Shown in pieces: positions 1,913-39,346 of a stretch of DNA of 64,000 nucleotides. Both the position numbers and the translations under genes were made by a program. The notes under the pieces are model-generated. The model was not told the DNA's origin. It did no database searches and saw only the letters and a list, made by a program, of their open reading frames with translations. Positions within the stretch are counted from its first letter, which is position 1. Each line of letters starts with the position of its first letter. The stretch is from a virus (taxonomy: Duplodnaviria > Heunggongvirae > Uroviricota > Caudoviricetes): IMG/VR virus record IMGVR_UViG_3300024507_000282, positions 40,861 to 104,860 of that record. One strand, given 5' to 3'.

Positions 1913-3325
1913 ATGAGAGCCAAAGAATTCTTATCCAAACTTTTTGAATCAAAATCCAACGTTTACGTAATTGGAGACAGTATTGCCAATGGCATTGCTG
2001 GCGCCGGTGGCGTTAGCAAAGAATACACTAATCCTGGAAAAAACACTACATTTGTTCTACAAAATCTTGTAACGCCCTTTGTTAAAAGTGGCAAAGCAAA
2101 AGGTGCTATTGTTATTTTAAGTAGTGGAGCCGCTAACAGTGGTAAAGTAGAAACAGAAGACGGAACACAGATTCAATCGGAAAACTTTGGTCCAATTAGT
2201 CAACAGATTAAAGCGTTAAAAGATGCAGGAGCATCGGTAGCACTAGTTGGTGTTGCTGATGGCAAAACACCTTTGCAAAAGCCTACAAAGTTTACTAATG
2301 GTAAACAATGGACTGTAGATTACACAGGCGCAAATCAAAAACTATCCGGCATTGCCGCAGGCGCAGGAGCAAAGTTTTTAGGTTCACTAAACACCTTTGA
2401 TCCAAACATAGCCAAGGGCGATGGCATACACCCGTTTAACGGATACAGTAAACTATTTCAAGCAGGTTCTTCTATTGCCGCACCTGCTAGTAAAGATACA
2501 GCAGACAATAAAGAAAAAGATGCTACGGCAGTTCCATTTAGTGTAGAAGTTCCAGACGGCAAACGTGGCCCATTAATTGCAGATGCACAAAAGGCATTAG
2601 AAGCATTGGGCGTACCTTTACCTAAATATGGTGTTGATGGGATTCAAGGTAAAGAAACAACAGGTGCTATCAAAACCTTCCAAGAGAAGAATGGCTTAGA
2701 AGCAACAGGAATTGTTAATCAGCAAACTGCGGATAAAATGAACGCCATGCTCAAAGCCAAGCCTGAAGTATTGGCTACTTTAACAAAGAGTACTAACAAG
2801 GATGTTAAGTCATTAGACTATAGCAGAGGTGCTGAAGAAGTTGCAGCCTTAACTAGCACCGAGAGTACGCAAAAGGCAAGAGCAACAGCAGAAAAGTATC
2901 TAGGACGTCCAATGGACGACAAAGAATGGAATTACTTGTTACGTGCTACAACTGCTGAAGCAAGCAATAACAGTAAAGAACAAGCCTATGTTATGGGCGT
3001 TATCCTAAACAGAACACGCACAGGTAATTGGGGCGACAATGTTATCAGTGTGTTAAGAGCTCCAAATCAGTTCCAAGCAGTTACTGGTACAAGATTTGAT
3101 CCGGGCCCAAGTGCTAACTTTACACGTGGCCCAACTGATAGACAATTGGCTAACATTGTAGATGGCGCAATTAATATTCTTCCGCAAGTTCCAACAAATC
3201 TCAAATACTTTACAGCGGCTTCTAGTGCGGCCTACGGTGCAGGCACTAACATTGGATTTAGAGATAAGATGATAGCCGCTGGCGGCGAAAAGATAGGCGG
3301 CACAATATTTGCCGCTCAAGTATAA
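1913..3325 (+). CDS. peptidoglycan hydrolase: GDS(L)-like N-domain, PG_binding_1 domain, SleB-type cell-wall hydrolase C-domain; CTS-like N-terminus MRAKEF
   Basis: motifs VIGDSIANG; GVDGIQGKETTGAIKTFQEKNGL; NSKEQAYVMGVILNRTRTG...APNQFQ (Hydrolase_2/SleB); N-terminus shared with three other ORFs. Confidence 0.7.
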   Translation: MRAKEFLSKLFESKSNVYVIGDSIANGIAGAGGVSKEYTNPGKNTTFVLQNLVTPFVKSGKAKGAIVILSSGAANSGKVETEDGTQIQSENFGPISQQIKALKDAGASVALVGVADGKTPLQKPTKFTNGKQWTVDYTGANQKLSGIAAGAGAKFLGSLNTFDPNIAKGDGIHPFNGYSKLFQAGSSIAAPASKDTADNKEKDATAVPFSVEVPDGKRGPLIADAQKALEALGVPLPKYGVDGIQGKETTGAIKTFQEKNGLEATGIVNQQTADKMNAMLKAKPEVLATLTKSTNKDVKSLDYSRGAEEVAALTSTESTQKARATAEKYLGRPMDDKEWNYLLRATTAEASNNSKEQAYVMGVILNRTRTGNWGDNVISVLRAPNQFQAVTGTRFDPGPSANFTRGPTDRQLANIVDGAINILPQVPTNLKYFTAASSAAYGAGTNIGFRDKMIAAGGEKIGGTIFAAQV

Positions 3326-3355
3326 AAAAGGACTCCGAAGAGTCCTTTTTTATTT
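3324..3355. terminator. bidirectional intrinsic terminator between convergent genes
   Basis: GGACTCcgaaGAGTCC stem, A-tract 5' and T-tract 3'. Confidence 0.7.
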
Positions 3356-3390
3356 TCTATAATTTCCCTATGGGATTAATATAATAATTA

Positions 3391-6727: not shown

Positions 6728-7456
6728 ATGAACGTCACAGAATTAACTGGTATTCCTAGTCCCGACTTTAGCATTAGTAATGCTGTGGTCTTCCACGACA
6801 TACTGAACCCTAAATTGTTCACTGAGTCGGGTATGATGCACGGGGAAGTACGCAGAGCGTTGATTGATATTGCTCGCCACTTTAAAGATTTCATAGGAGT
6901 TGAGTTAGACGTTAAAGATATCACAGTCAGCGGCAGTAACGCGGCATTCAGTTATACTCCACAGAGTGACTTGGATCTGCACATTGTTGTTGCTGTACCA
7001 GACAAGCCAGAATTCCGCGAACTGCTGGATGCCAAGAAAAATGTATATAATGCTAGACATGACATCAAAGTGCGAGGTATAGACGTAGAGCTATATGCCC
7101 AGGACGTAAACCAAGAGCACCACAGTTTGGGAATTTACAGCGTGTTAAGGAGTCGTTGGATTGAAAAACCCACACGACAAGATGTAGATATTAACACACA
7201 GGATGTTAAGGATAAGTACAAGAACTACAGAGATAGAATTATTGTAGTGTTAGGCGACAATGACATTGCCCTAGCAGAAGATATGTGGAAAGACATAAAA
7301 CGTATGCGACAGGCAGGTCTAGCCCGTGATGGAGAATTTGGCACAGAGAATTTAGTATTCAAAATGCTACGCAGTCAGGGATGGATCGAAAAACTCAATG
7401 ATCATATTAACACACTACAAGATCAAGAATTAAGTATAGAGCAGAGACAACTATGA
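6728..7456 (+). CDS. nucleotidyltransferase, Pol-beta superfamily
   Basis: hG[GS]x9-13Dh[DE]h signature: VSGSNAAFSYTPQSDLDLHIVVAV. Confidence 0.55.
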   Translation: MNVTELTGIPSPDFSISNAVVFHDILNPKLFTESGMMHGEVRRALIDIARHFKDFIGVELDVKDITVSGSNAAFSYTPQSDLDLHIVVAVPDKPEFRELLDAKKNVYNARHDIKVRGIDVELYAQDVNQEHHSLGIYSVLRSRWIEKPTRQDVDINTQDVKDKYKNYRDRIIVVLGDNDIALAEDMWKDIKRMRQAGLARDGEFGTENLVFKMLRSQGWIEKLNDHINTLQDQELSIEQRQL

Positions 7457-7716
7457 AAATATCAGACTTATTAGAAGCAGTACCCCCAGCACCAGGTGCC
7501 GCGCCCGCTCCAGGAGCCACAGCGCAAGGAGCCACACTGGATCCTAATAATCAAATGGTTGCTCAGGATCCTGCCGCACAGCAAAAACAAATGCAGTTAC
7601 AGATAGCACAGCATCAAAAAGAAGTGCAAGACAAGAAAAAAGAAATTACTGATCAAATCGCTGATTTAACAAAACAGATAACTGACCTTAAAAAGCAGAT
7701 GGCTGAATTAAAATGA
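7453..7716 (+). CDS. small coiled-coil protein with Ala/Pro-rich N-terminus
   Basis: ATGA start overlap with upstream gene; heptad-like C-terminus. Confidence 0.5.
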   Translation: MKISDLLEAVPPAPGAAPAPGATAQGATLDPNNQMVAQDPAAQQKQMQLQIAQHQKEVQDKKKEITDQIADLTKQITDLKKQMAELK

Positions 7717-7913
7717 AAATTAACGAATTTGTAAGAAAAATAGATGTATGGACCAGCAAGGAGGAACAAGAACTTCTTGAAACTATCACTGAGCCCAGCA
7801 TCTTAGCAGGATTTAATGAAAGAGAGCAATCCATAATCGAAAGTCTTATACGTAAGAGTCTGTTAATTAAAGTACAAGGTAAACATTCTTCTTACGTATA
7901 TCCAAATGTTTGA
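7713..7913 (+). CDS. hypothetical protein
   Basis: translationally coupled ORF. Confidence 0.45.
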   Translation: MKINEFVRKIDVWTSKEEQELLETITEPSILAGFNEREQSIIESLIRKSLLIKVQGKHSSYVYPNV

Positions 7914-8382: not shown

Positions 8383-9270
8383 ATGCGTATTACAGAACTT
8401 AACAAACCATTAACTGCCAAGGCGTTAAACGAAAGCGTAGCCCAGCAATTTGGACAGAAAATTGATTTAGAGAGTTTCACTCTTGAACAGTTAGAAGATG
8501 CACGTAACAAGTTACGTACAAAGATTAGTCAGTTTGAAGCCAGCGAGAGCTACAATGCTGTCTACGAAGACGAAACATATTCTAAGAACAAACTGTTCCT
8601 AGATGTGTTAAATCGTGCTATCGAAGAGCGTAGCAACGAAATGACTACTGACAGCGGCTATACTGAAATGGAAAGCATGGTATTAGAAAAAGTAGAGCAA
8701 GGTGTTATCGCATTTGAAGATCTTCCAGAAGAATTACAGAATAAAGTTAATAAGAACAAAGCCGTAGTACAAGTAGAATCTGTACTACGTGAAGGCGAAG
8801 AAGAAAAGGCCGAGTTAATCATGGCCGCTCGTGACATGGTTGACCGCGTTACAGGCTGGATGGAAGACACAGCAAATATGCAGGCCGAATCAATGTTAGA
8901 ATTAATTGACTCTATAAGAGACGAAATGGGCAGTGATACATCAATGGAGTTCGAGGGAGTTGTTAAACCAGCCCTTGCAACTATCTACACAGCATTAGAA
9001 AGTTCACGTCAGCAACTAACACAAGCAGTTGCTATCTTAACAGGCGAAGGTGAAGGAGCCGCTCCAACAATGGGCGCAGAGCCAGCACCAGAAGCAGGCG
9101 CAGAAGAACCAGAAGCAGGTGCTGAATCAGGCACAGTAGTTGGCGGTGAAGAAGAAGCAGGAGCGGCTGCTCCAGCGGCAGGTGGCGAAGAGCCCGCAGG
9201 TCGTGCTACTCGTGAATCAATCGAGTTTAGCCGTAAACTAGCAAGTTTACTAGCACCAAAAAAAAAGTAA
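8383..9270 (+). CDS. acidic protein with Ala/Glu/Gly/Pro low-complexity C-terminus (late gene; scaffold-like?)
   Basis: late box upstream; net acidic; tail EGEGAAPTMGAEPAPEAGAEEPEAGAE... Confidence 0.5.
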   Translation: MRITELNKPLTAKALNESVAQQFGQKIDLESFTLEQLEDARNKLRTKISQFEASESYNAVYEDETYSKNKLFLDVLNRAIEERSNEMTTDSGYTEMESMVLEKVEQGVIAFEDLPEELQNKVNKNKAVVQVESVLREGEEEKAELIMAARDMVDRVTGWMEDTANMQAESMLELIDSIRDEMGSDTSMEFEGVVKPALATIYTALESSRQQLTQAVAILTGEGEGAAPTMGAEPAPEAGAEEPEAGAESGTVVGGEEEAGAAAPAAGGEEPAGRATRESIEFSRKLASLLAPKKK

Positions 9271-24596: not shown

Positions 24597-24598
24597 AA

Positions 24599-24891: not shown

Positions 24892-24924
24892 ATTTTGTAG
24901 AACGCCAATAGGGTTTTACGAAAC

Positions 24925-24973: not shown

Positions 24974-26839
24974 ATGAGCAAAGTCATCGGTATCGACTTG
25001 GGTACTACCAATTCATGCGTAGCAGTCATCGAGTCAGGAAATTCCAAAGTTATTGAAAACAGCGAAGGTGCAAGAACTACACCTAGTATTGTTGCCTATT
25101 CTACAGACGAAGTACTTGTAGGTGCTAGTGCTAAACGTCAAGCAGTAACAAATCCCAAAAACACAATCTATGCGGCCAAGCGTCTTATTGGACGTAAGTT
25201 CAAAGAACAGGCTGTACAAAAAGATATTGACCTAATGCCTTACGAAATCATGGAATCCAAGAATGGAGATGCATGGGTTCGCGCACAGGGTAAAGAATTA
25301 GCACCTCCGCAGATTAGTGCTGAAGTTCTGCGTAAGATGAAAAAGACAGCAGAGGATTATTTAGGTGAAAAAGTTACTCAAGCAGTTATCACAGTTCCCG
25401 CATACTTTAATGACAGCCAAAGACAGGCAACTAAGGATGCTGGAAAAATCGCAGGCTTGGAAGTATTGCGTATTATTAACGAGCCTACTGCGGCAGCTCT
25501 TGCTTATGGTGTTGATAAAAACGACAAAGCAGATCGCAAAGTTGCTGTTTATGACCTTGGTGGTGGTACTTTCGATGTATCGATCATTGAAATTGCCAAC
25601 GTGGATGGCGAAAAACAAATCGAAGTACTAAGCACTAACGGCGACACATTCTTAGGTGGTGAAGACTTTGACCAACGTATTATGGACTACTTGGTCGACG
25701 AGTTTAAGAAAGAGTCAGGCATGAACCTTAAGAAAGACATGTTGGCCTTACAACGTCTAAAAGAAGCCGCTGAAAAAGCCAAGATTGAGTTATCTAGCAG
25801 TGCCAGCACTGATGTTAACTTACCTTACATCACAGCAGACGCAAGTGGTCCTAAGCACATGAATGTTAAGATTACTCGTGCTAAGTTAGAAGCATTGGTA
25901 GAAGAACTAATCCAACGTAGTATCGAACCATGTAAGGTTGCTATGAAGGATGCAGGTGTTACTCCATCAGAAATTGACGAAGTTATTCTTGTTGGTGGGC
26001 AAACACGTATGCCCAAGGTACAAGAAGCAGTTGAAAAACTATTCGGTAAGGCTCCACGCAAAGACGTTAACCCAGACGAAGCAGTAGCAGTTGGTGCGGC
26101 TATTCAAGGTTCAGTACTAGCAGGTGATCGTACAGACGTTCTATTGTTAGACGTAACACCATTGTCACTAGGCATTGAAACTATGGGAGGTGTGTTTACT
26201 AAACTTGTACAAAAGAACACAACTATACCTACTAAGGCTAGCCAAGTGTTTAGCACAGCAGAAGATAATCAACCAGCAGTTGATATCAAAGTAGCACAAG
26301 GCGAGCGTGAACTATTCCAATACAACAAACTCCTGGGTGAGTTTAAGTTAGACGGTATTGCTCCAGCACGTCGTGGCACTCCACAGATTGAAGTTACATT
26401 TGACATCGATGCTAACGGCATTATGAAAATTAGTGCTAAAGATAAAAACACCGGCAAAGAAAATCAAATCACAATTAAGAGTGACAGTGGTCTAAGCAAA
26501 GAGCAGATCGAACAAATGGTTCGTGATGCAGAAGTTAATGCCGAATCAGATAAGAAGGCACGTGAACTTATCGATGCTAGGAACACAGCCGAGGCGTTGA
26601 TCAACAATGTTGAAAACGACATGAAAGAAACAACACTTTCAGACACAGATAAAACAAAGATCGAAGATGCTGTTAAAGCACTTCAAACAGAATTGACAGG
26701 TTCTGACAAAGACGCTATCGTACAAAAGACTAGCGAACTAGCAGTGGCCAGTCAAGCGATTGCACAGGCCAAACAGGACAAGCCATTTGAACCTGTTCAG
26801 GAAGATGCAATCAATGCCGAGTTTAAGGAAACAAACTAA
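24974..26839 (+). CDS. dnaK: molecular chaperone DnaK (Hsp70)
   Basis: [29 protein letters not shown] signatures; 621 aa. Confidence 0.9.
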
Positions 26840-26848
26840 ACTCGTTAT

Positions 26849-26905
26849 GTAGGGTGCCCGGGTGGGGCCCTACTAAAATTCTTGCTTAATTAAAGGAGAT
26901 ATAAA
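26849..26905 (+). promoter_or_regulatory. stable hairpin plus the same conserved leader, preceding hsp20
   Basis: GTAGGG..CCCTAC hairpin without T-tract, then AAAATTCTTGCTTAATTAAAGGAGA. Confidence 0.45.
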
Positions 26906-27352
26906 ATGACACAATTAACACGTTTTGACACAGCCGCTCTAAACAGAGCATTAATCGGTTTCGACAATCTATTCGATACTTTCGAAACACGCTTTGCACA
27001 TCAGATTTCGAACAACTATCCTCCATATAATATTGAAAAGTCTGGAGAAAACCAGTATAATATAGTTGTTGCTGTAGCAGGATTCGGTAAAGATGAAGTT
27101 GCAGTAGAAGTGGAAGGTGATCAATTAACTATTCGCGGCGAGAAGGCAATCAATGCTAACGAAGGCGAATACCAAGTTGAGTACTTACACAGAGGTCTTG
27201 CTTTCCGTGATTTCGAACGTAGATTTACTCTAGCAGAACACATGGAAATCAAGTCAGCAGAAATTAAGGATGGTGTGCTTACAATTCAAATCGAGCGCAT
27301 TGTTCCTGAAGCACTTCTGCCACGTAAGATTGAAGTGAAAGAAGTTAAGTAA
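26906..27352 (+). CDS. small heat-shock protein (Hsp20/IbpA family)
   Basis: alpha-crystallin domain; IbpA-like N-terminus. Confidence 0.85.
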   Translation: MTQLTRFDTAALNRALIGFDNLFDTFETRFAHQISNNYPPYNIEKSGENQYNIVVAVAGFGKDEVAVEVEGDQLTIRGEKAINANEGEYQVEYLHRGLAFRDFERRFTLAEHMEIKSAEIKDGVLTIQIERIVPEALLPRKIEVKEVK

Positions 27353-27354
27353 AA

Positions 27355-27378
27355 AATCGGGGGCTCCGGCCCCCACTA
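27355..27378. terminator. GC-rich hairpin (terminator-like)
   Basis: GGGGGCtccgGCCCCC after hsp20 stop; T-tract only on the opposite strand. Confidence 0.35.
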
Positions 27379-27407
27379 ATAAATACCATTAAGAATGGAG
27401 GGCCAAT

Positions 27408-27716
27408 ATGCCAACTGTAGACACCGAAATTAAAATTGACGAAAAGATTAAAATCGATATCACTGAACCTAAGCGTTACAAGGTATTGTTTTTAAATGAT
27501 AACAAAACTCCAATCGACTTTGTTATTGAATTACTAATGACTGTGTTTAAGCACTCCAGAGAAAATGCTGAACAGATTACATTAACTGTACACAATGAAG
27601 GTTCAGCAGTAGTAGGTGTTTATACCTACGAGATCGCCGAGCAGAAAGGTGTTGAGGCAACACACCTTGCACGTCAAGCAGGCTTCCCATTACAAATTAA
27701 AGTGGATTCCGAATGA
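27408..27716 (+). CDS. clpS: ClpS adaptor protein
   Basis: 102 aa; KVLFLNDNKTPIDFVIELLMTVF core typical of ClpS. Confidence 0.75.
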   Translation: MPTVDTEIKIDEKIKIDITEPKRYKVLFLNDNKTPIDFVIELLMTVFKHSRENAEQITLTVHNEGSAVVGVYTYEIAEQKGVEATHLARQAGFPLQIKVDSE

Positions 27717-28267
27717 GTCTAAAAGAACTTACACACGAGCAACATCGCAGAGCAGAAACAAGGCCTTTTGTTAAAGTCTTATTTTCAGGAAATGTAAATC
27801 CTAAACTATACGCAACATATCTAAAAAATCAACATCCAATGTATGAGATTTTAGAAGTCTGTGCTATGCCACATGGATTACTTTCCGGTCTACCAGAGAT
27901 ACGCAGAGCACCTGCAATTTTATCTGACTTCATAGAACTATGGGGCTCAGACAATCCTGAAGAACCAAAAATGTGTCCGGTAGTGGATGAATATATCAAA
28001 TATATTCTCAGCATCAAAGATGATCCTAAAAAGTTGATGGCACACATTTATGTACGTCACATGGGAGATTTATCAGGCGGTCAAATGATTGCTAAAAGAG
28101 TTCCAGGCAGTGGCAAATACTATCAGTTTGGAGACGAACCTGAAAAGATCAAAGAAGCAATTCGTGCAAAACTAGATGATAGTCTAGCAGATGAAGCAAG
28201 AGTATGTTTTGATTTTGCGGCAAAATTCTTTGATCAAATGATGGATATAGTTCCACACTATGAGTAA
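27713..28267 (+). CDS. heme oxygenase
   Basis: HemeO-family N-terminal helix; ATGA coupling to clpS and to the bilin reductase gene. Confidence 0.7.
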   Translation: MSLKELTHEQHRRAETRPFVKVLFSGNVNPKLYATYLKNQHPMYEILEVCAMPHGLLSGLPEIRRAPAILSDFIELWGSDNPEEPKMCPVVDEYIKYILSIKDDPKKLMAHIYVRHMGDLSGGQMIAKRVPGSGKYYQFGDEPEKIKEAIRAKLDDSLADEARVCFDFAAKFFDQMMDIVPHYE

Positions 28268-28940
28268 AGTATGGGACACGCTGATTGAAGTTCAGCATCT
28301 TTTAGAAAGCAGTTTTAATGAAACAGGAACAGAAATCTTTGAACCGGGCATGGATCGCTTTAATCAGCCTGGTTGGGTTAATCGTGTTTGGACCAGTGGG
28401 TCTTATCGCCGTGCTCACGTTGATGTTGTGGATGCTAGAGAAACCAAAGGACTCTGGATGATGCATTGTTGCATCTTCCCACACTTACACAATCCAGCAC
28501 CAATTTACGGCTTTGACGTTGTAGCAGGCAAGAATAAGATTACTGGCTGTTTTCATGATTACAGCAAAGCAGGAGATTCTAATCATCCTATGATGGAATG
28601 GTTTGCTGATTATGTTAAACGACTCGAATGGCGCAGAGAACGCCAACTACCAGAATGGGCTACCAACATATTCAGCCCTAGCATGGTAGCCGCAGGTAAT
28701 GTGCAGAGCGAAGAAGAACTAGCGCAGATTATAGAAATGGCTAAAGATACACTGGCACATTACTTAGAAACTGTAGCAGAAACTAATAATACTACTGAAA
28801 ATACCACAGAAGCGCAGAACTACTACGCAATCAATCAAAAATGTAACCCACATACTCCACGTGTAATGGCTAGTTTAGGCTTAGATGAAGAGGATGTTAG
28901 GGTATTCATACAGGAATGTTTGTTCCCAGAAATTCGCTAA
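28260..28940 (+). CDS. ferredoxin-dependent bilin reductase (PcyA/PebS/PcyX family)
   Basis: family-typical blocks WTSGSYRRAHVDVVD, MMHCCIFPH, GFDVV; sits downstream of heme oxygenase. Confidence 0.6.
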   Translation: MSKVWDTLIEVQHLLESSFNETGTEIFEPGMDRFNQPGWVNRVWTSGSYRRAHVDVVDARETKGLWMMHCCIFPHLHNPAPIYGFDVVAGKNKITGCFHDYSKAGDSNHPMMEWFADYVKRLEWRRERQLPEWATNIFSPSMVAAGNVQSEEELAQIIEMAKDTLAHYLETVAETNNTTENTTEAQNYYAINQKCNPHTPRVMASLGLDEEDVRVFIQECLFPEIR

Positions 28941-28963: not shown

Positions 28964-29872
28964 ATGAGAGCAAAAGAATTCATCACAGAAGCAACCAATG
29001 CCGCACAACAAGCCGCTATCGCTATTGCTAAAAAGAAAAAGCAAAATGTAAAAGAATTTGCGCCGGATAATAGTGGCGACGAAGAAGAAACATTACTCAA
29101 GTACGCTCGTATTTGGTACAATGGCGATGACGACATACAACAAAAAGTTGAAAAACTATTAAATCGTATGGGTTGGGAAATTGGCGAAATCGAATCAGAA
29201 GAAGGCGGCGCATTTGTTGTGCAGTCTGGCGATGAGCATGGTAAGAGTTATATTGGTTTTGCCCCAGAAGACTTAACTGAAGCCGCCATGGCGGAAGGTG
29301 TCGATATTGGCCGAGAGTGGATGAGCGACACTGAATTGGATCAGTATGTGCCAGATCGCTTACAACAACAATGGCGTGAATTGTTGGGTTACGATCGCCA
29401 TGGCAATCCAAGTGCATTGTGGGCAAACTTAACAGGCGGATATGAACCGGATGTTAATGATCGTCAACATCGTGCCCTAATGGTTAAAGTGGCTAACAAA
29501 TGGTTTGCGGCTAAGAAGATTCCTAATGTTAAATTCTTCAGTGTTAGAGATGCAGACGATGAATTAGAATGGTTAGTTCAAATTGGCCCAGAAGGTATGT
29601 CAGAAGATTGGCAGAAGGTTAATAAGAAAGACAAAACCGATGGCATGAGCAGTAAAGCCGTTAAAGCATATCGTAGAGAACATCCTGGTAGTAAATTAAA
29701 AACAGCAGTCACTACACCTCCTAGCAAATTAAAGAAAGGATCTAAGGCAAGTAAGCGTAGATCAAGTTTTTGTGCTAGAAGTGATGGCCAAAAGAAAATG
29801 CACAATATTGATTGCACTAAGACACCAGACAAGGCAATCTGCAAAGCACGTAAACGTTGGAACTGTGAATGA
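28964..29872 (+). CDS. hypothetical protein with CTS-like N-terminus MRAKEFITEA; basic Cys-containing C-terminus
   Basis: shared ATGAGAGCAAAAGAATT start; candidate packaged internal protein. Confidence 0.55.
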   Translation: MRAKEFITEATNAAQQAAIAIAKKKKQNVKEFAPDNSGDEEETLLKYARIWYNGDDDIQQKVEKLLNRMGWEIGEIESEEGGAFVVQSGDEHGKSYIGFAPEDLTEAAMAEGVDIGREWMSDTELDQYVPDRLQQQWRELLGYDRHGNPSALWANLTGGYEPDVNDRQHRALMVKVANKWFAAKKIPNVKFFSVRDADDELEWLVQIGPEGMSEDWQKVNKKDKTDGMSSKAVKAYRREHPGSKLKTAVTTPPSKLKKGSKASKRRSSFCARSDGQKKMHNIDCTKTPDKAICKARKRWNCE

Positions 29873-31422
29873 GAGCAAAAGAATTTATTTTATTTGAATC
29901 TGAAGGCGGCATGGCCCGCCGTGCAGAAGAAGCCGGCCGTGGCAAACGTGTAGCATTTAAAAATGCAGATGGAAATGTTATTCATATGATTGCATCTCAA
30001 GTGTTTCCACAAGACGTAGACAAGCGAGACAATTATCAAGAACTAGTTCCAGAGATTATGGACTATGTGAAGGCTAACAATGTAGCAGTATCTAACGCAC
30101 TAACACTTCCGCCAGTGGGCGGACTAAGCATACCTGAAAAAGCAGGTGCCGCATTAGTAATGATTTTTAAAGATGAAAAATCTAAAAAGAACATAGCATG
30201 GATCGCTCTTAAGCCTGCTAAGAAGCCAGGTGCTTATCCAATCTTCTTACAGACTAAACAGTTTTCAGACCTAACTGGTTATGTACAACTAAGCGGCAAA
30301 GCAGGAGAGGAAGATAAAATTTCTGGAGTACAACAACGTGCTCTAACTAATTTAAAACCTGTTGGAATTATTCCTACTAATACAACCATTGCTGTAGATG
30401 ATATTCCTACACAAGTGCAAGGTTCTATTCAAGAGCGTGATGATCTAGCAGATGCTATTAAACAACAGGTAGTACAACTATTGCAGGCTGTTGCTTCTGG
30501 TAGCAGTAATCCTGTCCCCGGCGCCGGCGACTATGCTAAGAGTTACGAAATTGATTTAGGTGAAACAGCCGCACCAATTTCATTAATTAAGAAAAAGTTC
30601 TTAAGTGGTGCATGGCAACAGGCCGAAGCCGGAATGGGTTTGAAGTTTGAAGAAGCCGTTGGTGTAGAATTTCCAAACGATCCTGCTGAAAAACTATACG
30701 ATAGTTATTTGAAGTTTTCAGGTGATGTGAAGATTCGTGTAAGTTCCAAAGACAAGCAAGGCGGCGCAAAGGCATCTGTATCTGGTGTGGTAGACGATAT
30801 AGCGGCATACCCGCAACGTTATGAAGGATTGTTTGATCCTAAAGTCAACCCAGGCTTCCAAGAGCTACTAGACATTGTAAACATTATTAAAGACCCTGAC
30901 ATGAGTTATGTGGCTAAAAGCGCACAATGGAAACGAAATGGTTCTATTGCTGGTGCATTAGAATTAGGTGTCAAAGTAGGCATCATCGATGGTACACAAG
31001 CAGAAAAAATTATGGAAATCATTGACAGCGATCAGCCGCATGTTGATGACGAAACACTAGGCGACTTAAAAGGATTGTTAGTTTATAAAGGCACAGACGA
31101 TTCGACAAGACCAGACTACAGAATTGGTTGGCATTTATTAGCCGCAGTAGCAACTGGCACAGCAAATAAAGTAAACAAGGACTACAAGACAGATGCTTTC
31201 TTCAAAGCAGTTCTGGAACGTTCCAATATGTTACAAGTCAAAACTTCATTACAACAGAAGCCTACTAAGGACGCTGAAGGTAAACCATCAAATGGAGCAT
31301 ACTTCTCCAATTTTGAAGTTATCTATCCTCCAGTATTCACGGGCACAATTAAATTGGATGCCAGCAGTAACTTCTACGCTACAAGAAGACCAGTTGGTAA
31401 AATGGGTTTCGCAATCCGTTAA
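29869..31422 (+). CDS. hypothetical protein (517 aa) with CTS-like N-terminus MRAKEFILFE
   Basis: same N-terminal module; ATGA coupling. Confidence 0.55.
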   Translation: MRAKEFILFESEGGMARRAEEAGRGKRVAFKNADGNVIHMIASQVFPQDVDKRDNYQELVPEIMDYVKANNVAVSNALTLPPVGGLSIPEKAGAALVMIFKDEKSKKNIAWIALKPAKKPGAYPIFLQTKQFSDLTGYVQLSGKAGEEDKISGVQQRALTNLKPVGIIPTNTTIAVDDIPTQVQGSIQERDDLADAIKQQVVQLLQAVASGSSNPVPGAGDYAKSYEIDLGETAAPISLIKKKFLSGAWQQAEAGMGLKFEEAVGVEFPNDPAEKLYDSYLKFSGDVKIRVSSKDKQGGAKASVSGVVDDIAAYPQRYEGLFDPKVNPGFQELLDIVNIIKDPDMSYVAKSAQWKRNGSIAGALELGVKVGIIDGTQAEKIMEIIDSDQPHVDDETLGDLKGLLVYKGTDDSTRPDYRIGWHLLAAVATGTANKVNKDYKTDAFFKAVLERSNMLQVKTSLQQKPTKDAEGKPSNGAYFSNFEVIYPPVFTGTIKLDASSNFYATRRPVGKMGFAIR

Positions 31423-32374: not shown

Positions 32375-32914
32375 ATGAAAAAACTATTATCACTTATAGC
32401 ATTATTGCCTATGATTGTATCGGCAGCACCTTTAGGTGATTACACCTTTAAGAGTCCTGCCTTTAACGGCGTAGGTTACAGCAGTCATGTATTAACCATT
32501 GAGAATCAAGAGCGCACACGTCAGAAAGAACGTGCAGATAAACTACAGGCTGAAATTGACAAAGCAGCCGCAGATAAGAAAAACACCAACCTTGCTAAGT
32601 TTGTTAGTAACTTAGAATCACGTATCTATGCACAGATTAGTCAGAACGTAGCAACCGCTATGTTTGCCAATAACAACTGTACAGCAAGTAGCAACACAAA
32701 CTGTTCTGGCAACATTGACTTCCAGGGCAACTATATTAGTTGGGGCAGAGTTAGTAGTGCTAACGATGCTAACTGTTCAACAGCCTACGGATACTGCATT
32801 ATGTTAAAGATTGCAGATCCTACAGCCACTAACCCAAGTACAGCATCATGCACAGACACTGGAATGAGTTGTGTGTATGTTCCATTAAGTTCATTCCAAA
32901 TGCCGGGGAACTAA
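32375..32914 (+). CDS. secreted CsgF-like protein (curli accessory)
   Basis: signal peptide; mature N-terminus DYTFKSPAFNGVGYS resembles CsgF TMTFQFRNPNFGGNP; C-terminus Cys-rich. Confidence 0.45.
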   Translation: MKKLLSLIALLPMIVSAAPLGDYTFKSPAFNGVGYSSHVLTIENQERTRQKERADKLQAEIDKAAADKKNTNLAKFVSNLESRIYAQISQNVATAMFANNNCTASSNTNCSGNIDFQGNYISWGRVSSANDANCSTAYGYCIMLKIADPTATNPSTASCTDTGMSCVYVPLSSFQMPGN

Positions 32915-32917
32915 GAC

Positions 32918-34087
32918 ATGAAAAAGACAATACTATCCCTAGCAGTTTTAACTATGCTTTCAGGTTGTGCTGTTATGCAGACAACTGGAGTACTAGACAA
33001 GAGTCCTGAAGTTACAGGGCAAATGACTAATGTTAAGAAAGAATTTGATACAATACCTAGTCCAATCGCTGGAAGACCACTAAGCGTGGCCGTTTATAGT
33101 TTTACTGATAAAACAGGTCAACGTAGACCGCAGGCAAACATTGCCAGTTTATCAACAGCAGTGACACAGGGTGCAGAAACATTCTTAATACAGGCATTAC
33201 AAAATGTAGGACGCGGTCAATGGTTCGACGTTGTAGAACGTGTGGGCATTGATAACCTAACTAAAGAACGTTTAATTATTAGGCAAATGCGCGAAGCATA
33301 TGAAGGTAAAGATGCTAAACCATTGCTACCAATGCAATTCGCTGGAATTATTGTAGAAGGCGGAATAGTAGGCTACGATCAAAGCACTACCAGCGGTGGT
33401 GTAGGTCAACGTATATTTGGCATAGGCAAAAATACACAGTGGAGCACTGATACAGTAACAGTAAGTTTACGAGCAGTTAGCGTAAACACTGGTAAGGTAT
33501 TAGCCACAGTGACAGTACAAAAGACTATCTTAAGTTCAGCAGACAGCGTATCTGCATTAAAATTCTTTGACGCAGGCACTAAGGCATTTGAAGCAGAAGC
33601 AGGTTTAACTATCAATGAACCTGGCACTTACGCTACAAAGGCAACTATTGAAATGGCAGTCGTAGAGTTAATTAAGGAAGGACAACGTAAAGGTGTATGG
33701 GAGTTTAAACCAGAATCCGCACCAGCGGCCAAGGCACCTGTACCAGCACCAGCGGCCCAGCCGGTAATTAGCTCTGAGATTAAAGAAGAAGTTAAAGTAG
33801 AGGAGAAGAAAGATGTCGTGGTTCAATCACAAACCAAATCCGAAACCGAAACCAAGGCCGTACCCAGTACCGCCGCAAAAGAACTAGAGAAGTTACCTAC
33901 AGAAGCAATTCTAAAGGATGCTCAGTTTATATACAAGGAGCCAAACGAAAAGAGTCAAAGGACTTGGCAGTTTAAGCCAAATACACGAGTATTCATAACC
34001 GGGAGCGAAGGTGATTGGGTACAAGTGCAGGACGTAGAGAAGCGTAAAGGGTTTGTTAAAAAAGAAGTAGTTAACAAACAAAAATAA
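32918..34087 (+). CDS. csgG: CsgG-family secretion-channel lipoprotein (curli CsgG / holdfast HfaB family)
   Basis: lipobox LSGC; long colinear similarity to E. coli CsgG (AVYSFTDKTGQ, ERVGIDNLTKERLIIRQ, IIVEGGIVGYDQSTTSGGVGQRIFGIG, VSLRAVSVNTGKVLATV). Confidence 0.8.
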   Translation: MKKTILSLAVLTMLSGCAVMQTTGVLDKSPEVTGQMTNVKKEFDTIPSPIAGRPLSVAVYSFTDKTGQRRPQANIASLSTAVTQGAETFLIQALQNVGRGQWFDVVERVGIDNLTKERLIIRQMREAYEGKDAKPLLPMQFAGIIVEGGIVGYDQSTTSGGVGQRIFGIGKNTQWSTDTVTVSLRAVSVNTGKVLATVTVQKTILSSADSVSALKFFDAGTKAFEAEAGLTINEPGTYATKATIEMAVVELIKEGQRKGVWEFKPESAPAAKAPVPAPAAQPVISSEIKEEVKVEEKKDVVVQSQTKSETETKAVPSTAAKELEKLPTEAILKDAQFIYKEPNEKSQRTWQFKPNTRVFITGSEGDWVQVQDVEKRKGFVKKEVVNKQK

Positions 34088-34170
34088 GAAAGAGAGGTAG
34101 CACTTTAAATTTTTTAATGGTCTTAGACCAAGGAGCGAGTTAGGGAAGATAACCTAATTCTGTAAAAACG

Positions 34171-35145
34171 ATGCATAAGAGAATCACAGGCGCTGGTGGG
34201 TTGTCGAGAAAATTACTCACAATTCTGGTGTTGTCTGCAATGACAACATTGGGTTATGCGGCTGACAATAGCATTTACATTGATCAGTCCGGCGATAATA
34301 GTACTATTACTATGACTCAAGACGGAGCAGGAAACAAAGTAAAGGGTATATTATTAAATGGCACAGCAGGTGGAACAACTGATCCTGCTAAACTAACTGG
34401 TGCCGCACAGACTATCAACATTGAGCAAACAGGAGCAACTAACGTATTGGCGTTAGGTGTTAACTCAACACAAGGTGGTACTGTACAAGGTTATGCTAAT
34501 ATTGGTGTGAATTTAAATTACCAAGTAAGTGGTGGTGGAAACACAGGTTACATTAATATTAACAATAATGGTACAGGCACAGCCAGTGGTAACGTTGTTA
34601 GTTTTGTTCAAAGTGGCGGTAGTGCAACTACAACACTTAACATGACTGGTACAAGTAACCAATTAACTGTTGGAACTAGTGGTGGTGCTAACAACACATT
34701 TACAGGTACAATCAACGCTGATGAAACTGTAGCAACTGTTAGTCAAACAGGTGGCGGCGGCAACGCAACTACACTTAACATGACCGGAAACAAAGGTCAA
34801 GTTAGTCTAACAACTGTTGGTGCAACTAACACTACATCTGTAACACAGAGTGCATACGGTGTAACTGGTGCTCAAGCAATTATCAACATCACAGGTTCTG
34901 GTAATACTACAGACGTAACACAAACTGGTGCGTACGATCACTATGCTAGTATTACTGTAACAGGCGGTAGCAATGGCATTACACTTGCACAAACAGGTGG
35001 ATCTGCTACTGGACACAGCACAACGTTATCTGTAACAGGTAGTACTAATACTATTGGTATTACACAACAAGGATCAGTTAGCAATCTAACTAATCTTGCT
35101 ATATCAGGAAGTGGCAACACTTACACTATTTTACAGAAAAACTAA
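34171..35145 (+). CDS. secreted curlin-repeat protein (CsgA/CsgB/HfaA-like)
   Basis: signal peptide; repeated Q-x-G-x-x-N units (DQSGDNSTITMTQDGAGNKV, IEQTGATNV, VSQTGGGGNATT, VTQTGAYDH, ITQQGSVSN). Confidence 0.55.
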   Translation: MHKRITGAGGLSRKLLTILVLSAMTTLGYAADNSIYIDQSGDNSTITMTQDGAGNKVKGILLNGTAGGTTDPAKLTGAAQTINIEQTGATNVLALGVNSTQGGTVQGYANIGVNLNYQVSGGGNTGYININNNGTGTASGNVVSFVQSGGSATTTLNMTGTSNQLTVGTSGGANNTFTGTINADETVATVSQTGGGGNATTLNMTGNKGQVSLTTVGATNTTSVTQSAYGVTGAQAIINITGSGNTTDVTQTGAYDHYASITVTGGSNGITLAQTGGSATGHSTTLSVTGSTNTIGITQQGSVSNLTNLAISGSGNTYTILQKN

Positions 35146-35154
35146 GAGGGTTCC

Positions 35155-36261
35155 ATGAAATTATGGATGGTAGTATTATGCGTTCCGTTGCTGAGTACAT
35201 CGTTGGCCTACGCCGCGATAGGCAAAGTAACGGAACAAATCAATACACCCCCGACTATCCAGAGACAGAATTCGACACTAACGGCGTCGAAAGGGACTGG
35301 AGTGGAAATGAACGATGCGATCAAGACCCAGCAGGGCAAGGTGGGGATAACATTTGAGGACGATACTAAAGTCCAAGTCAATGAAAATTCTAAACTTGTA
35401 ATTGATGATTTCGTTTATGATCCAAAAAGTAAGGCGGGTAAACTAGGTGCTAAGATTGCTCTTGGCACAGTTCGTTATGCGTCTGGACAGATTGCTAAGA
35501 ATTCGCCTCAGAATGTGGCCCTTTCTACTCCTAGTGCTACTGTTGCTGTACGCGGTACTGACTTTACTGCCACTGTAGACGAGCTAGGCGAAAGTACAAT
35601 TATTCTTTTACCTAGTTGTCCTAATGATAGACCAACACGCTCAGTTAGAGATATTGAAACTAACTGTAAGACTGGCAGTATTGAAGTTAGCAATGATGTA
35701 GGTACTGTAATACTAAATCAACCCTTCCAAGTAACTAAAGTTCAAAGTAGAACACAACCTCCTACACCGCCTAAAGTATTAAATCTAAGTGAAATGGCCA
35801 TTGGCAATATGTTAATTGTCAGTCCTCCGCGCGAAGTCAAACAAGCACAACAAGAACAACAGAGAACATTTAATGCTTTAGACTTTGACTTTTTAAAAGA
35901 GAAAGGTTTGGAGAATTATTTAGATATGCAGGCCAATATGATTTATGAAGATAAGTTAGCCAAAAACTTTTTGTCTAATGATTTCCTTGCTAACTTATTC
36001 GACATTGTGGGAAACATACTGGATCAAAAGTTTTTAGATCCTGTAGATCCTGTGCTACCAGACTATAAAAAGTCCAGTGGCATTATAGCCTACAAAGATG
36101 ATATGAGTGTTGAACTCTGTCGCGACAACGGTGCTGACATACAATGTGTTAAAACACCACTCACACAAAACTCAACAATATTACAAACACAGGGCAATTT
36201 AGAATTTAAGAACAGAATAAATCAGGGAGGTAATACTATTATTACCTTGATACAAAAATGA
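35155..36261 (+). CDS. secreted FecR-domain-like protein
   Basis: signal peptide; VAVRGTDFTATV block typical of FecR/DUF4880 beta-domain. Confidence 0.4.
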   Translation: MKLWMVVLCVPLLSTSLAYAAIGKVTEQINTPPTIQRQNSTLTASKGTGVEMNDAIKTQQGKVGITFEDDTKVQVNENSKLVIDDFVYDPKSKAGKLGAKIALGTVRYASGQIAKNSPQNVALSTPSATVAVRGTDFTATVDELGESTIILLPSCPNDRPTRSVRDIETNCKTGSIEVSNDVGTVILNQPFQVTKVQSRTQPPTPPKVLNLSEMAIGNMLIVSPPREVKQAQQEQQRTFNALDFDFLKEKGLENYLDMQANMIYEDKLAKNFLSNDFLANLFDIVGNILDQKFLDPVDPVLPDYKKSSGIIAYKDDMSVELCRDNGADIQCVKTPLTQNSTILQTQGNLEFKNRINQGGNTIITLIQK

Positions 36262-38651
36262 TAAAACGTTTATTACAGTTCCTTGTGTTTTTAACTGTGT
36301 GCATTAGCGCACATAGTCAGGCTGTGACTTATAATGCTATTGCTACTGCTTATGTTACTACTACAATTAGTCAACAAGTAGTGTTTGATAGTAATATGCA
36401 ACAAGGCGGTACATTTACAATGAGTGTACTAGCACACAACGGCGGCGGCCGTGCAGGACAAAGTGATACGGCTAACGTAAAGATACAGTTCTATAACAGC
36501 AGTGGTGGATTAATCACTAGCGTAAACTCAACTAACTCTGCTAACTTACCAAACCCAAATGCTGTGTGTGGTAATCCTTGTATTGATACTGCGGTACCTT
36601 GGACTACAGTAACTATCAGTGCAACGCTTACTGCGGCACAAGCAAGCCAAGTAGCCTATGCCACAGTCAGTATGTACGGTATTGATGGAAGTTACTGGGC
36701 AGGTGATTATGGTCCTTGGTATCGTGCTCCTACATTCCAACTTAATGGCGGCGGCAACTTATTGTATAACCCGGAGTTTGGGCCTTATAATAATATAACA
36801 GCACAAGGTTGGGTATCAAATCCAGGGTTCGGTGCTTGTCAAGGTGCATGGGGCGGATCAAATGCCTGTATCGTTAACAGCGATGGAGTGCCTGGTTCGA
36901 GTACAGTTGGCTTAGTTGCTAACGCTAACGGTGGCGGCCCTAGTGCTACTGGTGGTACTACTAGTGGTACTGCTGGTGGATATAATAACACAATGTCAGT
37001 GACCAATGCTGGCACGGGCGCAACTGCCGGTGCGGCTCCTGCTCCGACTCCTACAGTAACAGGAACTAGTGTAACTTATACAACTAGAACTGTGGTTAAT
37101 GGTAATACAACTACTGTTTATCGCACACCTGTAACTACAACAACTTACAGCGACGGAACTAGCACAAGTACAAATGGTACTGAAGCAGTATATCAAACTA
37201 AGGTTGCGTCTAACGTAGTAACTACAAAAATTGTAAACGGTGTTCTGACAACAACTACAACACCAATTAATACAGTTACTACAACCGGCGTTAATGGCAG
37301 CACCATAGAAGCAAACGGCACAGCAACAACTACAACACAAAACATACAGCAGGGATTAAACTATAAAGTCTACAAATTCGATCCTTACACTTATAACTGC
37401 GGTTGGTTAGGTTGTATTAAAAACTGGTTAGGGCCATATCGTGTACCTGATATGCCACCTGGTGGACAGCCTGTTAGTATTGGTACAACTAGTAACGGAG
37501 TTTATGTTCCGACTAACGGCAGTTTTCCAAATATGGACACTGGTACCTTAGTTAGATTCAACGGAACGATTACTGCTCCGACGACACAAAATTATCCTGC
37601 AGGTACTGTATATAGATTATACTTCTATAGCAACAGCGATGACGGATTTGTTATGAGTGTAAACGGACAAACAGTTATCAACGATAGATCTACATTCCAA
37701 CTTCAGAGTATAGGTGGCTATACAGCGTCTGGCTGGATAGACATAGTAGCAGGACAGACTTATAATTTTGAAGCATGGTACTGGAACGACACCGGCGGCT
37801 ATGGACTACGTTTTCAATGGGACTACGGTGCAGGCCGTATGAACGTACCTAACTCTGCATTTACTACAGGGTGGATTACTGAAACAAATACAATTGACAC
37901 TAGTGGATTTGTTTATTCTAACAGCGCAGTAGTTGACGTGTCGGGTACAACAGTTTTATTAGGACCAGTAGTTGAAGGTGGAACAATTACACAAACAAAT
38001 GCGCCTGGTGATCAAGTTATAGGTAGCGGTGGCTCATACGTTCCTCCAGCAGATATAGATGTTAAACAAACTAGAATTAATACTTGGAACAACGGTACAC
38101 AAAACTACAATAACGAATTGTACATCACACAAACATACGGTACTAACAATAATGTAACTATTACACAAAGTGGTACTAAGAACAAAATCGAATTTACCTT
38201 AGAAGGAAACAACAATATTGTTAATAATACTCAAACTGGCAGTAACTACTTAAAGCAAGAAGTGCCTGGGTGGGGCAATAACATAACTACTAATCAGTCA
38301 AATGCTAGTGGTTCAAATTATGCTGAAACTAAAATACAAGGAAATGGTAATACTGTAAATCATACACAAACCGGTAATCACATATTGTTCAGTAAAGTTA
38401 CAGGCGATATTAATACTGTAAACACTACACAGTCTGGCGGTGCTGGCCATTTCGCTGATATTACACTAACAGGAAATAACAACTCAGCACTAGTGACACA
38501 AACAGGAAATACTGCTAACAGAGCAGTTATTGATGTAACTAACGCAGGTGGCCCAGCCAGTGTTGACCTGCAACAAACAGGCGGCAAATCATTTAGCATC
38601 ATTCAAAGTTGTACAAATCCAGCGGGTTGTAGCACAGTTGTTCGCCAATAA
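36258..38651 (+). CDS. large secreted Thr-rich protein with PA14-like domain and C-terminal curlin-like repeats
   Basis: signal peptide; PA14-like block YFYSNSDDGFVMSVNGQTVIND...AWYWNDTGGYGLRFQW; C-terminal TQTGN/TQSGG repeats. Confidence 0.55.
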   Translation: MIKRLLQFLVFLTVCISAHSQAVTYNAIATAYVTTTISQQVVFDSNMQQGGTFTMSVLAHNGGGRAGQSDTANVKIQFYNSSGGLITSVNSTNSANLPNPNAVCGNPCIDTAVPWTTVTISATLTAAQASQVAYATVSMYGIDGSYWAGDYGPWYRAPTFQLNGGGNLLYNPEFGPYNNITAQGWVSNPGFGACQGAWGGSNACIVNSDGVPGSSTVGLVANANGGGPSATGGTTSGTAGGYNNTMSVTNAGTGATAGAAPAPTPTVTGTSVTYTTRTVVNGNTTTVYRTPVTTTTYSDGTSTSTNGTEAVYQTKVASNVVTTKIVNGVLTTTTTPINTVTTTGVNGSTIEANGTATTTTQNIQQGLNYKVYKFDPYTYNCGWLGCIKNWLGPYRVPDMPPGGQPVSIGTTSNGVYVPTNGSFPNMDTGTLVRFNGTITAPTTQNYPAGTVYRLYFYSNSDDGFVMSVNGQTVINDRSTFQLQSIGGYTASGWIDIVAGQTYNFEAWYWNDTGGYGLRFQWDYGAGRMNVPNSAFTTGWITETNTIDTSGFVYSNSAVVDVSGTTVLLGPVVEGGTITQTNAPGDQVIGSGGSYVPPADIDVKQTRINTWNNGTQNYNNELYITQTYGTNNNVTITQSGTKNKIEFTLEGNNNIVNNTQTGSNYLKQEVPGWGNNITTNQSNASGSNYAETKIQGNGNTVNHTQTGNHILFSKVTGDINTVNTTQSGGAGHFADITLTGNNNSALVTQTGNTANRAVIDVTNAGGPASVDLQQTGGKSFSIIQSCTNPAGCSTVVRQ

Positions 38652-38809
38652 AATCTAACTAAATATTGGATGCTGAAAAACATCTTAATATTAGCAATTA
38701 TTACAACCTTAGCAGGCTGCGCCGGAATAGCATTTTGCGACAAAGACGGACGACCCAAGGGTTGCCACTCATGGGATCCTGCTACTCGAAACGGCGCGGC
38801 ACCAAGATC

Positions 38810-39346
38810 ATGAGAGCAAAAGAATTTATAAAAGAAGCAGAAGCAAGTGACGCCGATTTAAAAGCAAGATATGGTGACTTCGATCCTGAAGATAAAATAA
38901 TGCTTCCAACTACAAAATTAAGCAGAGAACCTGCAGCCACGCTTTGGACAGCATATGATGTAGTTAGAAATATTCTAGGTAGAGATAGAGTAACTGACGA
39001 TGATGACGAATTAGGTCCTGGAATGTATTATGTCTACCAGAGTAGCGGAGATCCAATGTTTAGGGATACAGGCGACGGCGTTGGCAGTATCAACTTACCA
39101 AATCTAGACAGCACCGCGGCACGAGACGTTGCTGTTGCGGCCCACGAAGCATATCACGCTTATGTACACGCTAAAAGTAAAGGCGGCTTTGCACACGCTA
39201 ATGAAAAGATTATTAACAACTTAGCAGAAAAATGGTTGCGTAAACATTTATCAGGACAAGCCTTACATACAGCATTAGAACAAATTATAGGCAGTAGAAT
39301 TAGTTACGGCCGCAACCACTTACCAAAGCCAGGATTTAAAAAATGA
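38810..39346 (+). CDS. hypothetical protein with CTS-like N-terminus MRAKEFIKEAE
   Basis: fourth ATGAGAGCAAAAGAATT start; upstream in-frame extension to 38666 judged non-coding. Confidence 0.5.
   Translation: MRAKEFIKEAEASDADLKARYGDFDPEDKIMLPTTKLSREPAATLWTAYDVVRNILGRDRVTDDDDELGPGMYYVYQSSGDPMFRDTGDGVGSINLPNLDSTAARDVAVAAHEAYHAYVHAKSKGGFAHANEKIINNLAEKWLRKHLSGQALHTALEQIIGSRISYGRNHLPKPGFKK

Follow-up and report, generated by a model that had tools for sequence, protein, structure and literature searches.

A short N-terminal peptide resembling the T4 capsid targeting sequence on unrelated proteins of uncultured PA5oct-related phages

In bacteriophage T4, the capsid targeting sequence (CTS) is a propeptide of 10–20 residues that secures the entry of its carrier into the prohead; cleavage by the T4 protease takes place behind glutamate (PMC5694885). 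The CTS of the internal proteins IPI, IPII and IPIII and the hyperplastic ip loci were described by Mullaney & Black (1996) and Repoila et al. (1994), respectively, as cited in PMC3012670, PMC5694885 and PMC12373910. The internal proteins of T-even phages have only this leader in common (PMC3012670; PMC12373910) and are injected inhibitors of host restriction systems of the GmrSD type (PMC12373910). Here we describe four proteins with the N-terminal tag MRAKEF(I/L) in a 64-kb stretch of an environmental phage genome (IMG/VR record IMGVR_UViG_3300024507_000282, positions 40,861 to 104,860), referred to as the window, whose coordinates apply to the leader counts, alignment and gene calls given below. 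We propose that MRAKEF(I/L)xE is probably the local form of a T4-type CTS, which would target proteins to the prohead, be cleaved after Glu and allow their ejection with the DNA. The T4-type CTS itself is already known; new here are its lineage, its consensus, the scale of its use and its enzymatic cargo.

The nucleotide sequence encoding the tag recurs in the window far more often than expected. The 17-mer ATGAGAGCAAAAGAATT, with up to two mismatches, occurs four times in 64 kb, in every case on the + strand (1913, 28964, 29869 and 38810), against a chance expectation of 0.06, and a count of four was reached in 0 of 100 shuffles. A preliminary description had reported that four open reading frames (ORFs) begin with MRAKEF, that the first 17 nucleotides are the same in three of them and one base off in the fourth, and that an I/L-x-E site follows each motif. 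All of this is borne out by the sequence and the four translations; the deviating copy is that at 1913, where GCC replaces GCA, and the pattern ATGAGAGC(A/C)AAAGAATT is found exactly four times in the window, each time at a gene start. The proposal that the last gene starts at 38810, and not at 38666, where the listed ORF has a TTG, agrees with public gene calls of 178 aa and with homologs that start at the leader methionine. The four leaders are as follows, with an arrow at the predicted cut.

1913–1948, + strand: leader 1, MRAKEFLSKLFE↓S, cut predicted after Glu12 (L-F-E↓S); from the 17-mer and translation
28964–28990, + strand: leader 2, MRAKEFITE↓A, predicted cut I-T-E↓A; from the 17-mer and translation
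29869–29898, + strand: leader 3, MRAKEFILFE↓S, predicted cut L-F-E↓S; from the 17-mer and translation
38810–38836, + strand: leader 4, MRAKEFIKE↓A, predicted cut I-K-E↓A; from the 17-mer, translation and public gene calls

The four proteins have in common MRAKEF(I/L) followed by an (I/L)-x-E site, and nothing else. Because an alignment of the four starts over ±80 nucleotides revealed no likeness 5′ of the ATG and none beyond ~20 nucleotides 3′ of it, the leader alone is shared among the four genes; the ATG of leader 3 overlaps the stop codon of the preceding gene (ATGA). A scan of the window with a relaxed leader pattern returned the same four gene starts and no others, and no further leaders were found when the window was extended by 10 kb on each side. 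The tags are 9–12 residues long and contain R, K, E and E with no hydrophobic stretch; by inspection, they lack the hydrophobic core of ~10–15 residues that follows a basic N-region in Sec/Tat signal peptides. Two AlphaFold models gave a pLDDT below 50 at residues 1–10 and 1–11 and confident folds beyond, and in these models the leader is a disordered N-terminal stretch.

The leaders closely resemble those of T4 (AF158101), in which IPII and IPIII start with MKTYQEFIAE↓A, IPI with MKTFKEFTSTTTPVSTITE↓A (MKTFKEFTST..ITE↓A) and gp61.1 with MKTFKEFIKE. Alignment with the CTS of the T4 internal proteins, which the preliminary description had suggested, reveals the same pattern, the window leader MRAKEFI(T/K)E↓A being one residue shorter. 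Low-stringency blastn of the leader DNA against 50,697 phage records matched mainly T-even phages, and the one match site examined was the start of gp61.1, which encodes a CTS-like leader.

By analogy, the short disordered propeptide would dock unrelated proteins onto the scaffolding core of the assembling prohead, a T4-type (Peptidase_S77) prohead protease would then remove it by cutting after the Glu of (I/L/V)-x-E, and the mature protein would stay in the filled head until ejected with the DNA at the next infection. We infer core binding, cleavage, head residence, ejection and the roles of the cargo in the host from this precedent. The predicted cargo in the window would comprise a peptidoglycan hydrolase with three domains, a protein with a DUF6321 tail, a 517-aa protein and a small HExxH protein.

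1913–3325, + strand: cargo 1, 470-aa peptidoglycan hydrolase (Pfam domains, homologs)
28964–29872, + strand: cargo 2, 302-aa protein with a C-terminal DUF6321 at aa 222–299 (domain match)
29869–31422, + strand: cargo 3, 517-aa protein, no known fold matched
38810–39346, + strand: cargo 4, 178-aa putative minimal zinc metallopeptidase; HEAxH (39143–39157) and a downstream NEK are invariant

Cargo 1 consists of an SGNH/GDSL esterase domain (~aa 14–190), assigned from homologs (PF13472/PF00657) and from a GDS block directly after the leader, a PG_binding_1 domain (aa 218–276) and a SleB-like Hydrolase_2 domain (aa 354–437). These domain matches and homologs confirm the three-domain architecture (SGNH-like, PG-binding, SleB-like) proposed earlier. 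The protein has no signal peptide, and its orthologs retain MRA(K/R)EF..(I/L)(F/L)E↓(S/A) immediately ahead of the GDS block. A second, membrane-anchored Hydrolase_2 protein, encoded at 20428–20997 beside lipoprotein-type genes, looks like the lysis enzyme, and the tagged hydrolase would presumably work after ejection. The DUF6321 module of cargo 2 is basic, contains four Cys and ends in ...CKAR(K/R)RWNC. It recurs at the C-terminus of leader proteins: 14 of the 19 carriers among the compared loci have the leader (phage loci and contigs used for comparison are labelled with L-numbers; DUF6321 loci are the window, L029, L051, L101, L131, L191, L195 and L213), and the gene that follows often has a leader start whose ATG overlaps the DUF6321 stop codon. 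DUF6321 was not mentioned in the literature searched. In the 517-aa family, M1, R2, E10, S11, G13 and G14 are invariant in a 45-member alignment, and nearly all of the 120 homologs listed start with MRxx(E/D)Φ..E↓S.GG. The 178-aa family has invariant E9 and A10 in 38 homologs. Its AlphaFold2 model has a pLDDT of 76, with residues 1–10 below 50; Foldseek returned no significant match for it, the best-ranked hits being zincins, ArdC among them, and a match to Zn_peptidase_2 is weak. These hints suggest, weakly, that the 178-aa protein is a mini-zincin.

The tag extends far beyond the window. An exact scan of IMG/VR with the GCA-spelled 17-mer identified at least 117 loci, nearly all of which are ORF starts followed by unrelated sequence and with a short open frame upstream. 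The synonymous GCT spelling, ATGAGAGCTAAAGAATT, is present at at least 120 IMG/VR loci, with 102 of the 122 matches listed resembling ORF starts, and other codon variants of the leader are present in flanks. In the 117 distinct leaders listed for the GCA set, position 7 is I, L, V or M in 104 (89%) and position 9 is Glu in 100 (85%), neither of which was imposed by the search, and conservation ends after position 9. As the synonymous spellings match each other in frequency and conservation of residues 7 and 9 emerges unprompted, selection acts on the peptide; on this comparison, the tag is a signal at the peptide level rather than a DNA or promoter cassette.

The same leader is carried by many kinds of protein. 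When 10 residues were trimmed from 130 MRAKEF proteins of one IMG/VR scan, the remainders fell into at least 34 unrelated clusters, which include one large family of proteins of 117–138 aa often encoded near TerL. No tblastn match in cultured phages was found for the common 124-aa leader family or for the 517-aa protein, most cargo has no PHROG match, and the string MRAKEF was not found in the literature searched. Homologs of the hydrolase and of the 178-aa and 517-aa proteins were sought among 5.8 billion proteins; nearly all full-length ones keep M(R/K)xx(E/D)Φ..(I/L/V)xE↓(A/S/G) down to 35–40% identity, while the inner residues vary and the leader length changes by 1–3 residues. Cargo domains in relatives include GNAT with ART-PolyVal (L077) and Amidoligase_2 (L031), a content that fits injected effectors.

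The genome belongs to a T4-related lineage. Its DNA has no close cultured relative, as megablast of 12 kb against the 50,697 phage records gave tRNA-sized matches only; exact window proteins were seen on contigs of up to 248–330 kb from many samples. The window (G+C 40.7%, 27 tRNA or tmRNA calls) encodes ribonucleotide reductase (RNR), bS21, DnaK, Hsp20, ClpS, ClpP, heme oxygenase, bilin reductase, a CsgF/CsgG curli-like block and a CHASE2 cyclase. Together with RIIA/RIIB, more than 40 kb of the window is collinear with PA5oct, a Pseudomonas jumbo phage that is one of the T4-related jumbo phages; virion proteins, exonuclease, RNR, bS21, Hsp20 and ClpS follow the order seen at 150–175 kb of PA5oct, and the rII genes match those of PA5oct.

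49599–52629, + strand: RIIA and RIIB homologs (E 2e-80 and 2e-79 to PA5oct RIIA and RIIB)

By these markers the phage is of T4-related lineage and a relative of PA5oct. The T4 CTS analogy of the preliminary description is thus supported by the comparison with T4 leaders, portability, peptide-level selection and T4-related lineage.

Leader-bearing contigs of relatives place the tag close to head genes. They are syntenic with the PA5oct region running from neck, sheath and tube genes to TerL and then UvsX, and their TerL and S77 protease are closest to those of PA5oct and Phosso (48–55% identity). In L142, the genes are ordered as gp20-like portal, 75-aa core protein, 314-aa protein, Peptidase_S77 (PF03420, E 1e-24; 54–55% identical to the PA5oct and Phosso proteases), scaffold-like protein and gp23-like capsid protein. 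Approximately 1.7 kb past this head module lie six tandem genes starting with MKIKDILAE, MRAHEFIIE, MRAIEFIIE, MRIAEFITE, MRFLEFINE and MRAKEFINE. The S77 protease is also present on leader-bearing L141 and L073 and in PA5oct. Between the portal and the protease of PA5oct is gp333, a 73-aa virion protein by mass spectrometry that starts with MKINDIITE↓G, and its homolog in L073 starts with MRAKELLCE. Two further PA5oct virion proteins detected by mass spectrometry, gp246 and gp247, start with MKIKDILVE↓S and MFLKDVKITE↓S. Three weaker candidate leaders lie in the window.

7453–7716, + strand: candidate divergent leader gene, MKISDLLE↓A, 87 aa; weak, by pattern only
7713–7913, + strand: weak candidate leader gene, MKINEFVRK, 66 aa; by pattern only, with Lys, not Glu, at position 9
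8383–9270, + strand: PA5oct gp247 homolog (E 1.4e-8), start MRITELNKPLTAKALNE↓S; possible longer propeptide

The first lies within a block homologous to PA5oct virion proteins, where its start may be compared with that of gp246; the second falls outside the relaxed leader pattern; the start of the third reads MRITEL...ALNE↓S. A separate observation concerns homologs of PA5oct gp282, a mass spectrometry virion protein, which occur in L133 (4296–4904), L174, L183, L207 and L222 and start with MKNFQQYLTE↓S, MKNFKDYLAE↓S, MRAFAEYLTE↓S or MKMKSFTEFLTE↓S. This conserved protein near the neck genes has a second, T4-like (MKTF..) flavour of leader.

Several points weigh against a CTS function. The packaging and cleavage of the MRAKEF proteins are predicted from comparison. 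The position just past the cut varies more than its T4 counterpart, being Q, D, E, S, A, T or G where T4 has mostly Ala, and the Glu of the leaders at 1913 and 29869 sits 1–3 residues further downstream. We know of no precedent for a head-packaged peptidoglycan hydrolase in T4-type myoviruses, and an ejected hydrolase would have no obvious route to the murein. Genes for an S77 protease, scaffold or capsid were not found in the window or its ±10-kb flanks, so the protease of this genome has to be deduced from relatives. The ORF at 44390–44953, considered as a head maturation protease, was rejected, as it encodes ClpP (PF00574) with no similarity to T4 gp21. Finally, the PA5oct mass-spectrometry list also contains enzymes that are plainly non-structural, RNR and thymidylate synthase among them, and detection there is therefore weak proof of packaging. 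As a side observation, the PA5oct homolog of the window ClpP is annotated 'head maturation protease', which is probably a mislabel because PA5oct has a true S77 protease (gp331).

The alternative that survives best, which we nevertheless regard as unlikely, is that the tag, as a removable propeptide or an assembly signal, serves another destination, such as the tail, baseplate or neck, or acts as an inhibitory N-terminus of the zymogen type, so that enzymes such as the hydrolase or the HExxH protein become active only late in infection. Small leader genes do lie between neck/tail genes and TerL in many relatives, and the PA5oct proteins with similar leaders are labelled merely 'structural' with their location unstated; for the zymogen variant, the hydrolase has its catalytic GDS block right behind the leader, a place where extra N-terminal residues could influence activity. 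Against another destination stand the same leader type on the small protein between portal and S77 protease, which is the position of T4 gp67, the leader arrays directly after the head module in L142, the sequence match specifically to the T4 capsid targeting sequence and a cargo too diverse for tail parts.

The tagged genes also behave as mobile units. In L089 and L100, the bilin-reductase gene runs directly into the 517-aa gene and the 302-aa gene is absent; since the window has the 302-aa gene between two leader copies, the indel ends exactly at the leaders. Tandem arrays of 4–8 leader genes occur in L051, L083, L133, L134 and L142, with up to 7–8 within 12 kb. The idea of 'one leader dialect per genome' was rejected, as MRAxEF, MRFxEFK and MKIxEI types co-occur on single contigs. 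From these comparisons, the tagged genes appear to come, go and replace one another as cassettes that break at the tag, an exchange attributable to the tag being short and shared. It could be argued that the tag is nothing but a recombination handle that moves accessory genes between phages and encodes a functionless peptide. The L089/L100 indel that terminates at leaders would suit such a handle, as would the different cargo genes found in equivalent neighbourhoods beside an Endonuclease_NS gene in relatives. However, 17–20 nucleotides are very short for homologous exchange, the peptide pattern is maintained between phages and DNA identity is not, and a role of the DNA alone needs no in-frame Met, hydrophobic position 7 or Glu9. 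We consider a pure handle very improbable; the exchange is better taken as a side effect of CTS function, as for the T-even ip loci (PMC3012670).

A role at the RNA or DNA level, as an enhancer of translation initiation for short-leader late mRNAs or as a promoter/5′ untranslated region (5′UTR) cassette with an incidental peptide, has slightly less still in its favour. The 17 nucleotides are identical in three window genes, synonymous sites included, the leader sequence is A-rich, and a TAAATA motif often precedes the ATG in this phage group: it ends 4–7 nucleotides (mostly 5) ahead of the ATG in ~14–16% of ORFs at ~240 IMG/VR loci, for example at 1899–1904 before the gene at 1913, so many mRNAs may have very short leaders. 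The motif is not enriched before leader genes (16%) relative to other ORFs (14%), and its candidacy as a T4-type late promoter specific to leader genes was rejected on this ground. Nothing is common upstream of the ATG, the GCT spelling is as common as GCA and is joined by other codon variants, conservation at positions 7 and 9 is by amino-acid class, and orthologs alter nucleotides and retain the peptide pattern. The repeated promoter/5′UTR cassette that the preliminary description had named beforehand as the scenario at odds with its reading is excluded by the unshared upstream sequence and the lack of specificity of TAAATA. In its own right, the TAAATA spacing leaves next to no room for a 5′ leader and none for a Shine-Dalgarno sequence, and the motif may be a T4-type late promoter, not specific to tagged genes, that yields near-leaderless mRNAs.

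We give least credence of all to a degradation or chaperone signal for the phage Clp/DnaK proteins, for example through processing that exposes Phe6 as a ClpS N-degron: the window encodes ClpS (27408–27716), ClpP (44390–44953), DnaK and Hsp20, and an exposed Phe6 would be a ClpS substrate under the N-end rule, but there is no hint of a cut before Phe6, the conserved part reaches to (I/L/V)-x-E, which has no N-degron role, leader genes cluster with head genes and not with Clp genes, and T4, the owner of the closest leader, to our knowledge lacks ClpS.

Targeting to the head thus appears to be the reading that best accommodates the tag. We further suggest, more tentatively and with slightly more doubt than conviction, that MRAKEF-type tags mark a very large, unrecognised set of injected proteins of abundant environmental PA5oct-related jumbo phages, with hundreds of families and up to 8 per 12 kb. 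Among its members would be a head-packaged esterase/lytic peptidoglycan hydrolase, a mini-zincin, enzymes of the ART/GNAT kind and proteins with the recurrent DUF6321 tail, and the tag would double as an effector-shuffling junction. These phages are mostly aquatic, judged from metagenome sources. The T4 internal proteins were reportedly found through their shared packaging tag, and the same logic appears to extend to jumbo phages of a large group with hardly any cultured members. Because hundreds of distinct proteins of related environmental phages carry the tag, it could be used to list probably injected proteins: M(R/K)xx(E/D)Φ..(I/L/V)xE picks candidates from metagenomes, most of them without a known family. 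The candidates form a concrete list for anti-defence and host-takeover screens, and the leader is a possible tag with which to load PA5oct-type heads with foreign proteins. The finding also raises the testable question of whether a myovirus head can carry a peptidoglycan hydrolase. If the wider set of injected proteins is real, the arsenal that uncultured giant phages direct against hosts and their defences would be readable straight from sequence by a nine-residue pattern.

Other features of the window were noted alongside. A scan with a 20-mer version of the leader sequence across 185,579 bacterial and archaeal genomes (596 Gb) gave 9 matches, mostly inside housekeeping genes or short chance ORFs, and therefore offers no clue to the host. 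The regions 24363–28940 and 44390–44953 contain a proteostasis/pigment set of bS21, DnaK, Hsp20, ClpS, heme oxygenase, ferredoxin-dependent bilin reductase and ClpP, in which the order of bS21, Hsp20 and ClpS is the same as in PA5oct and DnaK is 68% identical to the DnaK genes of records with proteobacterial hosts. A curli-like secretion block at 32375–38651 encodes a CsgF-like protein (32375), CsgG with an SH3 domain (32918), weak curlin repeats in two proteins (34171 and 36258) and a FecR-like protein (35155); leader genes and the gene for a Bax1-I membrane protein (31571) border it. The CHASE2 adenylate/guanylate-cyclase gene at 39343–41393 is split into two overlapping ORFs by a 1-nucleotide deletion (break at ~39636/39637); in L121 (19475–21526), the same phage in another assembly, it is a single 683-aa gene that is otherwise identical over 2051 nucleotides, and the split may reflect an assembly error, strain variation or a site of frameshifting. 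Adjoining it are a D-Ala-D-Ala carboxypeptidase (Peptidase_S11, 41415–42164) and, on the – strand, a fatty-acid desaturase (42154–42858), which are further envelope-remodelling genes. A histone H1-like Hc1 protein, a chlamydial-type nucleoid condenser (PF07432, E 2e-20), is encoded at 46008–46319. RNA genes include a permuted tmRNA-like call (47732–48134), a suppressor-type tRNA with anticodon CTA called as tRNA-Pyl by ARAGORN (53825–53898) and an array of ~24 tRNAs (59022–63937). Immediately upstream of the window start, L122 (3572–9967) carries a 2131-aa ORF without a Pfam match, which ends just ahead of a secreted Endonuclease_NS gene (window 650–1459) and whose C-terminus is the window ORF 2–616.

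Four known systems can be compared with the tag. The N-terminal propeptides of head and ejection proteins in phiKZ, 201phi2-1 and SPN3US are likewise processed by a gp21-related prohead protease that cleaves behind Glu, and these are giant phages with numerous ejection proteins; the propeptides differ in their A/S/G-x-E motif, in a length that often exceeds 100 residues, in the lack of a short shared tag and in belonging to another lineage (PMC5694885). In the leaders described here, the residue two before the cut is I, L or V, unlike the motif of the phiKZ/SPN3US type, and the phage has lineage markers of the PA5oct/T4 type. The internal core protein gp16 of T7, which has a lytic transglycosylase domain, offers a parallel for a murein-cutting enzyme that is stored in the head and ejected at infection. 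In contrast to the window hydrolase, with which it has no homology, gp16 belongs to a podovirus, has no cleavable tag, sits in a structured core and forms the ejection channel. T4 Alt is an ADP-ribosyltransferase packaged in the head, and phage 'polyvalent protein' effectors have reportedly been described by Iyer et al. (2017). Both resemble the present case as enzymes delivered with the DNA, matched here by the GNAT + ART-PolyVal protein of L077 and the Amidoligase_2 of L031, but Alt has its own leader (MELITELFDE) and the polyvalent proteins are giant fusions, whereas here separate genes have one tag each. The closest counterpart is the T4 CTS, which shares an N-terminal tag of ~10 residues composed of Met, a basic residue, two to three variable residues, E-F-I, one variable residue and Glu, often with Ala or Ser next. 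The carriers are otherwise dissimilar in both cases, their genes lie in variable, cassette-like arrays, and the lineage has, in relatives, a homologous S77 prohead protease predicted to cut after Glu. The differences are that the window consensus lacks one residue and has MRA instead of MKT; that the phage is an uncultured relative of jumbo phage PA5oct and not a Tequatrovirus; that packaging here is predicted from sequence; that many carriers end in a DUF6321 module; and that most of the cargo consists of larger proteins of enzymatic type (hydrolase, HExxH protein, GNAT + ART, amidoligase), in place of small restriction inhibitors.

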